The position numbers and the translations under genes were made by a program. This document shows positions 5,462-62,416 of a stretch of DNA of 64,000 bases, piece after piece. A model generated the notes under the pieces. The model did no database searches. It was not told the DNA's origin and saw nothing but the letters and a program-made list of their open reading frames with translations. This DNA comes from Escherichia coli (GTDB lineage Bacteria > Pseudomonadota > Gammaproteobacteria > Enterobacterales > Enterobacteriaceae): NCBI RefSeq assembly GCF_050920415.1, contig NZ_CP169309.1. One strand, given 5' to 3'. Numbering within the stretch: the first letter of the stretch is position 1; every line of letters begins with the position of its first letter.

Positions 5462-6766
5462 TTAACGATCCCAGTAAGACTCTTCCAGACTGTCTTCACG
5501 CTCCGGTAAGCCGCGCGTTAAACGAGGTGAATGCTGGTTCAGTACCTGATAGCTCACACGGTTAGCATATTTACACACCTGCGCTAATGACGAATACGTT
5601 AACCAGGTGAATTTATGTTTGCTGGAGTTTGGTACGTTGCTACGGTGGTAGCTGTTGGCGGTAATGTCATGCAGCAATGCTGCCAGTGCGCCATCCCCCG
5701 CTCCGTTAGTGTTCATGATTTTTTCCGGCCCGCCCATGTACGGCGCAATGTGCGAATAGACACGCAACGGATTCTGACAATCCTTGTGGCGCATGGCGCG
5801 GCTAAACTCATACTGGTTAAATTCCGCGATAGCGCCCGGCAGCAGCGGATGCTGGGTTTTGCGTTTCGCTTCGTCTTCGGTAAAGCCCGCCATATACAAG
5901 CCGATTGGTCCGGCGGTACACAGCACCAGATCAACCCAGTCCAGCGCCTTGTCAGATGCCAACAACGGATCGCTTTCTCCGGTCAACGCTTCGGCCTCAT
6001 CTTCGTTCATCGCAAGGATAGAGACGTGATCTTTGAGGAATTGCTGCCACCACTGCGGATTCTCGGCAATGACAAACTTGGTGCCCAGCGTCAGCACCAC
6101 CGGTACGTTATATTTCTTCGCGTACTCAATGGCTTTCATGGTTGCTTCCGGCATGGGTTCACCCGGCTTGCAACGCACCAGATAAGAAGTGAGAACCAGC
6201 GCCGAGGCTCCGGCAATCACATCTTCCGGAATACTTTCAGCCCGCAGCTGGTTCATGTGGCCAGGGCTGATAGCAAAGGTACGTTCCCCGGACTCGCCAA
6301 TCAGCGTAAAGCAACGACCAATCGGGCCATCCACGCCTTGTAGATAGTTAAGATCGGTACGGCTGGAGGTGTTACATAGGTAACGATAGGCATAGCTGCC
6401 AATTTCAATATTGCTGCACATGACGCCCAGCAGCACCGAACGGTCGTCCGCGAGCACCGAGTAGTTGTGCATGGTGTTACCAATAGTGCCACCCGCAAAT
6501 TGATGGGTAATCAGGTTTTTCTGTTTCAGCTCCTGATAAAGTGCTTCGGCAACATCATCCTCAATCACCAGTGAATGCCCGGCGCTTAATCCATAACGCT
6601 CAATGAACTCATCATCCACTTTCGCTTCAATATCGACCAGCGTTTGATCGATACCCACTACCCAGGCAGCGCTGGTTTCGTTTTCTGGCTGGAATTGCTG
6701 AAGCAGCGGATCTCGTGCGTTTACGGGAAAATAATGTTTGGATTTACGTTTGCCGGGAAATTTCAT
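5462..6766 (-). CDS. gsk: Inosine-guanosine kinase (434 aa)
   Basis: Full-length ORF recognised as E. coli Gsk; synteny. Confidence 0.88.
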   Translation of the reverse strand: MKFPGKRKSKHYFPVNARDPLLQQFQPENETSAAWVVGIDQTLVDIEAKVDDEFIERYGLSAGHSLVIEDDVAEALYQELKQKNLITHQFAGGTIGNTMHNYSVLADDRSVLLGVMCSNIEIGSYAYRYLCNTSSRTDLNYLQGVDGPIGRCFTLIGESGERTFAISPGHMNQLRAESIPEDVIAGASALVLTSYLVRCKPGEPMPEATMKAIEYAKKYNVPVVLTLGTKFVIAENPQWWQQFLKDHVSILAMNEDEAEALTGESDPLLASDKALDWVDLVLCTAGPIGLYMAGFTEDEAKRKTQHPLLPGAIAEFNQYEFSRAMRHKDCQNPLRVYSHIAPYMGGPEKIMNTNGAGDGALAALLHDITANSYHRSNVPNSSKHKFTWLTYSSLAQVCKYANRVSYQVLNQHSPRLTRGLPEREDSLEESYWDR

Positions 6767-22380: not shown

Positions 22381-25533
<3,153 letters not shown>

Positions 25534-25550
25534 TACAACGTGTAATCACT

Positions 25551-25575
25551 AAGGCCGCGCAAGCGGCCTTTTTTA
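25551..25575 (+). terminator. Rho-independent terminator after acrB (AAGGCCGC-GCAA-GCGGCCTT then TTTTT)
   Basis: Perfect 8-bp stem, GNRA-like loop and T-run. Confidence 0.8.
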
Positions 25576-26079
25576 GATGCATAACCTACGAGTTGAATGG
25601 GGAACTGAACAATCAACTCAGAATCTCATATGAAAACCAGTATTAACTTCGCATAAAATTCATAAAAAATACTGATTGTTAGTTAATTTATATTAAGTAG
25701 CGCTAATAGATTTAATAATCCATAATCATTTAGAGGCTTTTCTTAATTATTTGCGGTAATTCTTTATTCATTCATCGGTTATTACGACATATTCAGAGCA
25801 TTCCTGGTATTAGTGTGACCAATTTCATCTGGCGATAATCTTGAAATGTTATGAACAGTTCGAGCAAACTGCTTTTACCTGCAGCGGGTTGGTGCTAGTA
25901 TGAAAAAGTGAGTCCTATCCCGCTTCCTTCCTATTTGTAATTTTTCGTAATAATGCGATGAAAACCTGCAAAGAGTGGCTTATAGTTAAGCTAACAAACG
26001 AGAGGGCAAGTCCAGGTCAGTAAGTTTTTTCCATCCCGAAAGGTGTCCGTTAGTTCAACCGCTAAGAAGGGGACGCGTT

Positions 26080-26454
26080 ATGGATGAATACTCACCCAAA
26101 AGACATGATATCGCACAGCTTAAGTTTCTCTGTGAAACCCTGTATCATGATTGCCTTGCAAACCTTGAAGAAAGCAACCATGGCTGGGTTAACGACCCAA
26201 CCTCGGCGATCAACCTCCAGTTGAATGAACTGATTGAGCATATTGCGACCTTCGCACTTAATTACAAAATTAAGTATAATGAAGACAATAAGCTCATTGA
26301 GCAGATCGACGAATATCTGGATGACACCTTTATGTTGTTCAGTAGTTATGGTATTAATATGCAGGATCTTCAAAAATGGCGGAAGTCAGGTAATCGACTA
26401 TTCCGTTGTTTTGTCAATGCGACGAAAGAGAATCCTGCGAGTTTATCTTGTTAG
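26080..26454 (+). CDS. tomB: Hha toxicity modulator TomB (124 aa)
   Basis: 124-aa ORF immediately upstream of hha. Confidence 0.85.
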
Positions 26455-26479
26455 AATTATTACAACCATGGGTAGAAGT

Positions 26480-26698
26480 ATGTCCGAAAAACCTTTAACG
26501 AAAACCGATTATTTAATGCGTTTGCGTCGTTGCCAGACAATTGACACGCTGGAGCGTGTTATCGAGAAAAATAAATACGAATTATCAGATAATGAACTGG
26601 CGGTATTTTACTCAGCCGCAGATCACCGCCTCGCCGAATTGACTATGAATAAACTGTACGACAAGATCCCTTCCTCAGTATGGAAATTTATTCGCTAA
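26480..26698 (+). CDS. hha: Haemolysin expression modulator Hha (72 aa), H-NS partner
   Basis: Starts [35 protein letters not shown]; track ORF 26234..26698 is an upstream extension. Confidence 0.9.
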
Positions 26699-26869
26699 TA
26701 AATAATTGGCTTTCGGAGCTATAACCAGCTGTTTATTAAGAATTTTATACTTTATCGCCATGAAGGCGCACCCTATGTGATCTTCATCACACAGACGTAA
26801 TGGGAACGTTCTCTTCACTGACTTTTCGTCTTACTGTGTTGCCGCATTTTCAGCAACCGGAGGTCAGTA

Positions 26870-27421
26870 ATGAGCACAGAAAAAGAAAAAATGATTGCTG
26901 GTGAGTTGTATCGCTCGGCAGATGAGACGTTATCTCGCGATCGCCTGCGCGCTCGTCAGCTTATTCACCGATACAATCATTCCCTGGCGGAAGAGCACAC
27001 ATTACGCCAGCAAATTCTCGCTGAATTATTCGGTCAGGTGACAGAGGCTTATATTGAGCCAACGTTTCGCTGTGACTATGGCTATAACATTTTTCTCGGC
27101 AATAATTTTTTCGCCAACTTCGATTGCGTGATGCTTGATGTCTGCCCTATTCGCATCGGTGATAACTGTATGTTAGCGCCAGGTGTTCATATCTACACGG
27201 CAACACATCCCATCGACCCTGTAGCACGTAATAGCGGTGTTGAACTGGGGGAACCCGTCACCATCGGTAATAACGTCTGGATTGGCGGACGCGCAGTCAT
27301 TAACCCTGGTGTGACCATTGGTGATAACGTCGTGGTAGCCTCAGGTGCAGTTGTCACAAAAGATGTCCCGGACAATGTTGTCGTGGGCGGTAATCCAGCC
27401 AGAATCATTAAAAAATTGTAA
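26870..27421 (+). CDS. maa: Maltose O-acetyltransferase (183 aa), hexapeptide-repeat family
   Basis: Left-handed beta-helix hexapeptide repeats near the C-terminus. Confidence 0.9.
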
Positions 27422-27536
27422 CCTGTTTTTCGCAACTGTTATGCAAAATCGTGGCAAATCTGTTACTTTCCCTCTACTATTCCCACGTTAAAATAGGGTG
27501 TTCCCTGGAAAGTTGCAGATACCACGAAGGCAAACG

Positions 27537-28007
27537 ATGACCGAAATACAACGCCTGCTGACCGAAACGATTGAGTCTCTGAATACCCGCGAAAAACGCG
27601 ACAACAAACCCCGCTTTAGTATCAGTTTTATCCGTAAACATCCGGGGCTGTTTATCGGTATGTACGTTGCTTTTTTTGCCACCCTGGCGGTGATGTTACA
27701 GTCCGAAACGCTGTCAGGCTCTGTCTGGCTACTGGTTGTATTATTTATCCTGCTTAATGGTTTCTTCTTTTTCGATGTCTACCCACGCTACCGCTATGAA
27801 GATATCGACGTGCTGGATTTCCGCGTTTGCTATAACGGCGAATGGTACAACACGCGCTTTGTACCTGCCGCGCTGGTTGAAGCCATCTTGAACTCTCCGC
27901 GTGTCGCGGATGTTCATAAAGAACAACTGCAAAAAATGATCGTCCGTAAAGGTGAACTGTCTTTTTACGATATTTTTACCCTCGCTCGCGCCGAATCAAC
28001 ATCTTAA
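27537..28007 (+). CDS. ylaC: Inner membrane protein YlaC (156 aa)
   Basis: Start [15 protein letters not shown] chosen for K-12 length; two hydrophobic segments. Confidence 0.7.
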
Positions 28008-28164
28008 GTTAGGGTTACATACCAGGCGTAAAGCTCTGCGCCTGGTCAAATGACAACGTTCGTTTCCACCCATCTCTTCATGAAATCCCGGCTCTACCTC
28101 CTTATCTCCTGCCAGCCTTTTTCCACAATCAGATATACTTTCCCTACACTGTGTTAATAAGGAT

Positions 28165-54731: not shown

Positions 54732-55191
54732 TCTGTAAATATTATTTAGCTGTAGTAATCACTCGCCGTAATTATTACGGCTAAATAAACATCAGCATCG
54801 CTTATTAATATTTGTTCTTTTGTGCGGCTTAGTGTTTGGAAATTATTGACGCCATTTATGAATTCTATTTTTTCTTACACGATTCAGCTAATGAGACTTT
54901 ATTTCCCCACCACCCAATTGTCACCTTAATGATAATTATTTGTTAAATAAATGTTTTATTTAGCATTGATTATACCAATTGCCCGCTCAGACTCCTTCTG
55001 CACTCCCCTTTCGTTATAACGCCCTTTTGCAACAGCTTCTTAAAATCAACTTGATATGTTTTGCAACATATGTGACCTGGCAGCCAAATCCAAGTAACAG
55101 GAATTTAATCATGTTTACAGTAATGTAACCTTCCCGTAAAATGCCCACACACTTTAAACGCCACCAGATCCCGTGGAATTGAGGTCGTTAA

Positions 55192-62000: not shown

Positions 62001-62416
62001 AAATAACCTTTATGCATCCATCACTGTATTTTTCAATATACCTAACCACCAAACATCCACTTCATGAATAAATACACAGCCATAACAACCTCAGGTAATA
62101 AGCAAACATTTAAGCTGAAGCAGAATAACCAGCACCGCCAACACCTCTATTTATTGCGATAAAATAACACCATCCTTTAATAAAAAATCACACGCTCATC
62201 AACAAATCCGAAAATAATATCATTCGTGGCAGGATAAAATCAGGCGAGCTTTTCATTTGTTATATTTAACGCGCAAAGTATTAATGGCAAGAATACGAGA
62301 GAAGCGCATGCCTGACGTAAAAATCACGCTCTTATGTAATATTTACTCATTAACACTCTGTTTACCCAACATGCGCTCCGCACTACACTATGTGGGCAAT
62401 TTTTTAAGAGGTGGTA

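Follow-up and report, generated by a model that had tools for sequence, protein, structure and literature searches.

The AT-rich acrB-tomB spacer as probable control region of the tomB-hha operon in Escherichia coli

Genes, terminator and composition of the spacer

The window discussed here, a stretch of 64 kb of Escherichia coli DNA analysed as a whole, carries acrB and, downstream of it, the two small genes tomB and hha. The acrB stop at 25533 and the tomB start at 26080 are separated by a spacer of 546 bp, for which RefSeq shows no annotated feature in K-12 and none in the closest genome. In K-12 coordinates the spacer occupies 480,709-481,253. The stretch of interest, 25576-26079, fits exactly between the end of the acrB terminator and the tomB ATG, and the long gap that a preliminary description of this DNA had placed between these two landmarks is borne out to the nucleotide (stop 25533, hairpin 25551-25570, ATG 26080). 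The following features delimit and subdivide the spacer:

25551 to 25576, plus strand: intrinsic terminator of acrB, an 8-bp GC-rich hairpin (25551-25570) followed by a T run, found by terminator scan
25577 to 25655, no strand: variable segment restricted to Escherichia; of 18 other genera aligned, 17 have a gap here
25656 to 25860, no strand: AT-rich core of about 30% GC upstream of the promoter, inside the lowest-GC 260 bp; a putative H-NS/Hha platform
26080 to 26454, plus strand: tomB (Hha toxicity modulator), 124 amino acids, 40.3% GC, from the list of open reading frames and the RefSeq annotation
26480 to 26698, plus strand: hha (the partner of H-NS and the autoregulator), 72 amino acids, 40.6% GC, from the sequence and the RefSeq annotation

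The genes tomB and hha lie 25 bp apart (26455-26479).

The region upstream of tomB had been described as strongly AT-rich, and the windowed GC profile agrees: positions 25576-26079 contain 36.7% GC versus 51.2% for the 64-kb window, a difference far past chance since just 0.5% of all 504-bp windows are equally low. The GC minimum of the whole 64 kb is a 260-bp window beginning at 25569, with 29.2% GC or about 4.4 standard deviations under the mean. Within the spacer the composition is uneven, with 29.5% GC in 25600-25860 and 44.5% in the promoter-proximal 220 bp adjoining tomB (25860-26079). TpA steps are enriched 2.1-2.6 times over the window in the region and reach 11.1 per 100 bp in the AT-rich core, compared with 4.3 in the window. 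The accompanying statement that the region holds many A/T tracts is true in a weaker sense: tracts of at least four bases are about 1.85 times denser than in the window (17.9 versus 9.7 per kb), but this amounts to nine tracts only. Curvature, predicted with a wedge model, is ordinary but for a single moderate peak near 25663, which ranks 12th in the window; the regional mean in this prediction is 12.3 degrees versus 9.8 +/- 5.6 degrees.

The low GC content does not end at the tomB ATG. An AT-rich island of 1.3 kb (25571-26869, 38.8% GC) encloses tomB, hha and the spacer between hha and maa, and is flanked by acrB at 53.8% GC and maa at 47.8%. Elsewhere in the window, the 460-bp gap between the end of ampG (54731) and the start of cyoA (55192) has 35.9% GC and holds the lowest 504-bp GC value of all, which confirms the preliminary description in its claim that the DNA upstream of cyoA (54732-55191) is similar in composition. 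The cyo promoter is under the control of several regulators. A third AT-rich spacer of 416 bp, with 36.5% GC, separates divergently oriented open reading frames at 62001-62416; with it, the window has just three GC troughs this deep.

One genome per species was scanned for loci encoding TomB at an identity of at least 89%, which yielded 80 loci. In 76 of these, spread over about 20 genera, acrB lies directly upstream of tomB; together with the window they form a set of 77 spacers used throughout the comparisons below. Among the 76 loci, the spacer measures 435-559 bp and has 35-40% GC, even where the flanking DNA stands at 53-55% GC; length and composition are thus conserved over about 20 genera, and the sequence itself largely is not. 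The parts of the spacer differ in this respect. The acrB terminator hairpin is kept across 20 genera (identity 0.89). The AT-rich core is moderately conserved, with identities of 0.3-0.6 across genera, and its AT-richness is maintained in genera whose flanking DNA has 53-55% GC. The 79-bp segment 25577-25655 is the fastest-changing part of the spacer, and the one genus of the 18 aligned that is not gapped there, Raoultella, carries a short unrelated insert at this position.

The same segment accounts for much of the divergence between this strain and K-12. The window and K-12 MG1655 are 97.7% identical over acrB-tomB-hha-maa-ylaC, in an orientation opposite to that of the K-12 record, and the spacers are about 94-95% identical overall. 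Fifteen of the 29 spacer differences fall within 25577-25655, where identity drops to 81%. At the other end, the last 143 bp before the tomB ATG show no difference, and the K-12 ybaJ(tomB)-hha promoter of the literature (PMC2408971, PMC3946193) is the same locus with the same ATGAAA-17-TATAGT. Owing to the fast-changing segment, a spacer at least 99% identical to the present one occurs in just 18 of 5423 complete E. coli genomes, and 5391 genomes match at 90-95%; for the equally AT-rich cyoA spacer, identities of 95-99% are found in 5406 of 5424 genomes. The differences from K-12 in this strain's spacer imply no functional difference. The closest complete genome is that of strain MFDS1022581 (NZ_CP169399.1), which is 100% identical to the window over 22534-28075. 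Its match to the window ends at about 28076, just past ylaC, where NZ_CP169399.1 carries an IS2 element (5634-6546 in its own coordinates), and the strain of the window appears to be without that insertion.

Promoter, candidate operators and 5' untranslated region

The elements that may govern transcription of tomB-hha lie downstream of the variable segment, as listed here:

25793 to 25806, plus strand: putative RcsAB-box-like element TCAGAGCATTCCTG (consensus TaAGaatatTCcta), with 10 of 14 positions matched and the five core bases all kept
25893 to 25901, plus strand: candidate extended -10 element TGCTAGTAT, a possible upstream promoter P1, read by eye and of low confidence
25937 to 25951, plus strand: CpxR-box-like direct repeat GTAAT-TTTTC-GTAAT (GTAATTTTTCGTAAT), with two mismatches to GTAAA-N5-GTAAA
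25958 to 25986, plus strand: sigma-70 promoter of tomB-hha, ATGAAA-17-TATAGT, found by promoter scan, with a predicted start near 25993
25993 to 26079, plus strand: predicted 5' untranslated region (UTR) of about 87 nt with conserved blocks, including CAUCCC at 26032-26037

The hexamers of this promoter are identical to those given for tomB-hha in a genomic SELEX study, where the promoter was termed 'constitutive' in the sense of being bound by the RpoD holoenzyme alone (PMC3946193); the RpoS holoenzyme too binds the acrB-tomB spacer (PMC5493296). Both the -35 and the -10 hexamers are conserved among the compared spacers, TATAGT being present in all 77 at 93-113 bp upstream of the ATG, and the promoter lies within the fragment from -198 to -1 for which promoter activity has been published (PMC2408971). 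Given this conserved promoter at 25958-25986, transcription is predicted to start near 25993, about 480,795 in K-12, and the 5' UTR to measure about 87 nt. With the predicted start, some 400 of the 504 bp fall ahead of the promoter, and the designation of the stretch as a 500-bp leader is not borne out for most of its length, which would be upstream DNA preceding a short 5' UTR.

Two further promoter candidates were considered in a spacer where promoter-like sites are about as frequent as in shuffled sequence (5 versus 4.0 +/- 1.9). The extended -10 at 25893-25901 recurs in the form TGNTANNNT, 44-54 bp ahead of the CpxR-like box. E. coli has it, as do most Citrobacter loci and one of two Salmonella loci; among the compared spacers the remaining Escherichia species and almost every other genus are without it. 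The variants read TGCTATAAT, TGCTAAAAT or TGTTAAAAT in Citrobacter and TGTTAACAT in one Salmonella locus. A start from this element, at 25908, would give a leader of about 172 nt. Two starts, at -188 and -106, have been mapped in the orthologous ymoBA operon of Yersinia (PMC13353760), compared with the single one predicted here at about -87, and the extended -10 may be the counterpart of the upstream Yersinia start site. As a promoter of tomB-hha it was nevertheless rejected, being limited to one clade. The other candidate, ATGAAA-18-TAAAAT at 25630-25659, was rejected as well: part of it falls in the segment confined to Escherichia, and such sites are no more numerous than expected by chance.

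Upstream of the -35 hexamer, the tandem CpxR-like box is identical in 75 of the 77 spacers and is contained in the conserved block TTGTAATTTTTCGTAAT. Matches of this quality to GTAAA-N5-GTAAA are common by chance, with 67 in the window, and the weight of the box comes from its identity in 75 of 77 spacers combined with its position: it begins 56 bp ahead of the predicted transcription start, which would be the very offset of the CpxR site in Yersinia ymoBA. There, the site 56 bp upstream of the second transcription start (TSS2) is shifted by CpxR~P in electrophoretic mobility shift assays (EMSA) and reporter data are available too (PMC13353760). For E. coli, RegulonDB counts both tomB and hha among the targets of CpxR, and the CpxR iModulon includes tomB; tomB is not among the direct targets found by CpxR ChIP-exo (PMC7657598). 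By conservation and by analogy with Yersinia, CpxR would act on tomB-hha at this box.

The RcsAB-like box stands further upstream, inside the AT-rich core. Its consensus TaAGaatatTCcta is confirmed in the literature, where the functional hmsC box of Yersinia matches at 9 of 14 positions (PMC4325325). Across the comparison set, a palindrome TAAGAATATTCCTG/A (of the TAAGAATATTCCTA type) is found with at most two mismatches in 53 of the 77 spacers, at 306-335 bp upstream of the ATG (in three short spacers, at 237 bp); of shuffled spacers, just 0.6% do as well. The box is near-perfect in Enterobacter and perfect in Kluyvera. The site in the window went undetected in a search allowing up to three mismatches to the consensus, and the alignment suggests a box whose distance is constant in most genera and whose sequence has decayed in Escherichia (10 of 14 in E. 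coli). RcsAB possibly acts at 25793-25806. Our literature search found no link of Rcs to tomB/ybaJ, its results being largely noise and the structural paper on RcsB being silent on this locus, nor did it find a report of an RcsAB-type operator for tomB-hha.

Downstream of the promoter, in the predicted 5' UTR, the CAUCCC block complements the tomB ribosome-binding site at 26070-26075, which reads GGGACG in Escherichia and GGGAUG in most genera. CAUCCC is nearly invariant. A register of 6 bp, CAUCCC:GGGAUG, could form in 95% of cells, without covariation, and the pairing is uninformative on covariation either way because both sides are nearly invariant. RNAalifold, run on 17 and on 72 sequences, returned a consensus fold of -5.6 kcal/mol whose sole pairing joins UCCC to GGGG of the ribosome-binding site over 4 bp, with essentially no covariation, and two local hairpins in the 5' UTR have marginal support. 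The UTRs of E. coli, Salmonella and Enterobacter fold no more stably than their shuffles (z of +0.07, -0.55 and +0.30, respectively). The CAUCCC block may mask the tomB ribosome-binding site. A structured RNA leader, be it a riboswitch, a thermometer or an attenuator, was rejected on the grounds of these shuffle-like folds, the missing covariation and the absence of any Rfam match near threshold. Nearby, Rfam gives only STnc180, a minus-strand match covering the terminator that scores 19.5 bits where the family's gathering score is 50. It was dismissed as resting on the terminator hairpin and AU-rich sequence; in Salmonella this RNA maps between acnA and cysB, where it was judged to be a processed mRNA fragment, and the match is therefore attributed to chance. 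Six small open reading frames of 20-38 amino acids in the spacer were likewise discarded, none of them being conserved and one starting inside the -35 hexamer.

H-NS, Hha and feedback on tomB-hha

Autoregulation of the operon by Hha, or by its counterpart in Yersinia, has been documented. In K-12, ybaJ(tomB) was induced in all hha-deletion arrays (Garcia-Contreras 2008, PMC2408971). The same work reported that a ybaJ-hha promoter-gfp fusion is up in an hha mutant and down when Hha is overproduced, with qRT-PCR in agreement, and that Hha is found at its own promoter in vivo by nickel-enrichment array (PMC2408971). The acrB-tomB spacer, entered as 'tomB < HNS < acrB', carries an H-NS site mark from genomic SELEX in K-12 W3110 (Shimada 2014, PMC3946193). 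By our count in the tables of that paper, just 24% of the spacers of the same class bear this mark, which stands for in vitro binding at the resolution of the whole spacer. Hha gets to the chromosome essentially only via H-NS or StpA (Ueda, PMC3686432). In Yersinia pseudotuberculosis, whose ymoB-ymoA operon is orthologous to tomB-hha, ymoB rises 81-fold in the absence of ymoA, the gene of the Hha-family protein, and the authors read this as a negative autoregulatory loop (PMC8369931). Derepression without the silencer is thus on record for the K-12 hha mutant and the Yersinia ymoA mutant; Salmonella shows the opposite sign, promoter activity being down, not up, in hha and tomB single mutants (PMC5133643).

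Other published observations call for caution. In Salmonella, it is TomB rather than Hha that was reported to bind the promoter, and TomB shifts the fragment in EMSA (PMC5133643). Ueda and colleagues explained the signal that their own ChIP gave at hha by contaminating hha plasmid (PMC3686432), and the same doubt may touch the nickel-enrichment result since hha was plasmid-borne there too. The extent of the Hha-responsive DNA is also relevant. The gfp fusion spans -198 to -1, i.e. 25882-26079 in the window (PMC2408971), which means that the 70%-AT core is unneeded for the Hha effect, at least on a plasmid. The responsive fragment, at 44.5% GC, is the less AT-rich part of the spacer, and the link between the core and autoregulation consequently stays an inference.

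The motif TCGATAAATT was reportedly identified by Lang et al. in 2007 as a high-affinity nucleation motif of H-NS. Allowing up to two mismatches, it is not enriched in the spacer and does not occur in the AT-rich core; its one spacer match, at 25939-25948 on the minus strand, falls inside the CpxR-like box.

From its AT-richness, and from Hha being a partner of H-NS, the preliminary description had deduced that this DNA is of a kind bound by proteins of the H-NS/Hha type and that the operon regulates itself. The second deduction is right in substance and had already been published, from 2008 onward; behind both stand the published repression by Hha, the H-NS mark and the Yersinia feedback. What they leave aside is that the fragment shown to respond is not the most AT-rich one.

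Interpretation and related systems

It is established by published work that Hha represses the tomB-hha promoter and is enriched there in vivo, and that the spacer binds H-NS in vitro as well as RNA polymerase holoenzyme. The reading that we favour, with a probability of roughly three in four, is that transcription of tomB-hha is controlled from the acrB-tomB spacer, in which H-NS and Hha on AT-rich DNA lower the activity of the promoter and thereby provide negative feedback. Along the plus strand, such a region would run from the acrB terminator through the Escherichia variable segment into some 200-300 bp of about 70%-AT DNA, then to the RcsAB-like box, the CpxR-like box, the sigma-70 promoter and the 5' UTR of about 87 nt. 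H-NS would bind the AT-rich spacer DNA and Hha would join it as a partner; together they would reduce transcription from the promoter, and the operon would feed back negatively on itself. The 70%-AT core and the 1.3-kb island extending through tomB-hha would be the platform where the H-NS/Hha complex starts and spreads.

The AT-richness could instead be generic to long promoter-bearing spacers, made up of a terminator tail, UP-like DNA and factor sites, in which case the core would have no specific part in autoregulation and feedback would pass through the promoter-proximal 200 bp only, or through TomB bound to palindromes between the -10 and the start, in the manner of type II systems. The sufficiency of the -198 to -1 fragment for the Hha response (PMC2408971) fits this explanation, as do the shift of the Salmonella promoter fragment by TomB (PMC5133643), the two other spacers of the window that equal it in AT content (54732-55191 with 35.9% and 62001-62416 with 36.5% GC) and the lack of enrichment of the H-NS high-affinity motif. 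We nevertheless regard it as unlikely, considering that the core belongs to the lowest-GC 260 bp in 64 kb, that AT-richness and spacer length were kept over about 20 genera despite sequence turnover, and that the H-NS mark found here is carried by only 24% of comparable spacers.

An explanation at the RNA level appears more improbable still. A true long leader would originate from at least one upstream promoter (candidates at 25893-25901 and 25630-25659) and control would be mainly post-transcriptional, through Hfq and small RNAs or through masking by CAUCCC. The Yersinia starts at -188 and -106 and the promoter-like sites upstream would be compatible with it, although these sites occur at shuffle frequency, the extended -10 is confined to one clade and even a transcript from 25908 would have a leader of about 172 nt, not 500. 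The near invariance of CAUCCC and its complementarity to the ribosome-binding site point in the same direction, as does the enrichment of ybaJ(tomB) mRNA with Hfq in Salmonella, where it is about 2.9-fold down in an hfq mutant; set against them are the shuffle-like folding energies, the want of covariation and the lack of an Rfam family. That the spacer conceals an unannotated gene for a small protein or a small RNA we hold to be highly improbable. Short open reading frames such as 25958-26023 (21 amino acids) and 25841-25903 (20 amino acids) exist, but they cross indel-rich, unconserved columns and one begins inside the -35 hexamer; the weak minus-strand match to STnc180, at 19.5 bits, concerns an RNA of the acnA/cysB locus of Salmonella and is far below the 50-bit gathering score, and RefSeq annotates nothing in the spacer.

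A more elaborate version of the control region can be proposed only tentatively. The CpxR-like and RcsAB-like boxes, combined with H-NS/Hha feedback and a possible masking by CAUCCC, might tie two envelope-stress phosphorelays to the operon and make the tomB-hha region a multi-input switch controlling the amount of the H-NS co-repressor, more than mere AT-rich filler; judged from the sequence elements, we think this rather less likely than not to be how the region operates. How the level of tomB-hha is set is of some interest because Hha tunes the silencing by H-NS of horizontally acquired and virulence genes, and because tomB-hha affects biofilm and persister formation. The feature itself is real, ordinary and already known: experiments published in 2008 had demonstrated that Hha feeds back on the AT-rich region holding its promoter, a point to which the present analysis adds nothing new. 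Its comparative anatomy, namely the conserved length and AT content, the CpxR-like box, the RcsAB-like box and the block in the 5' UTR, offers targets for dissecting the promoter and leaves the overall picture unchanged.

Control of this type has well-known relatives. Like tomB-hha, hns, stpA and similar genes encode small nucleoid-associated regulators that repress their own promoter through AT-rich upstream DNA, and the parallel of Hha autoregulation with IHF, H-NS and HU has already been drawn (PMC2408971). Unlike autoregulators of the hns/stpA type, Hha does not itself bind DNA specifically and relies on H-NS or StpA (PMC3686432), which makes its feedback indirect, with a second protein required. 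Type II toxin-antitoxin operons offer another comparison, as they too consist of a small gene pair behind a promoter responsive to its own products. Antitoxins of that type bind palindromes in their own promoter, and binding of TomB to the promoter has been reported in Salmonella (PMC5133643). E. coli departs from this scheme in two ways: TomB acts by promoting the oxidation of Hha, with no stable complex between the two (PMC5155140), and the repressor demonstrated there is the 'toxin' Hha, not the antitoxin (PMC2408971).
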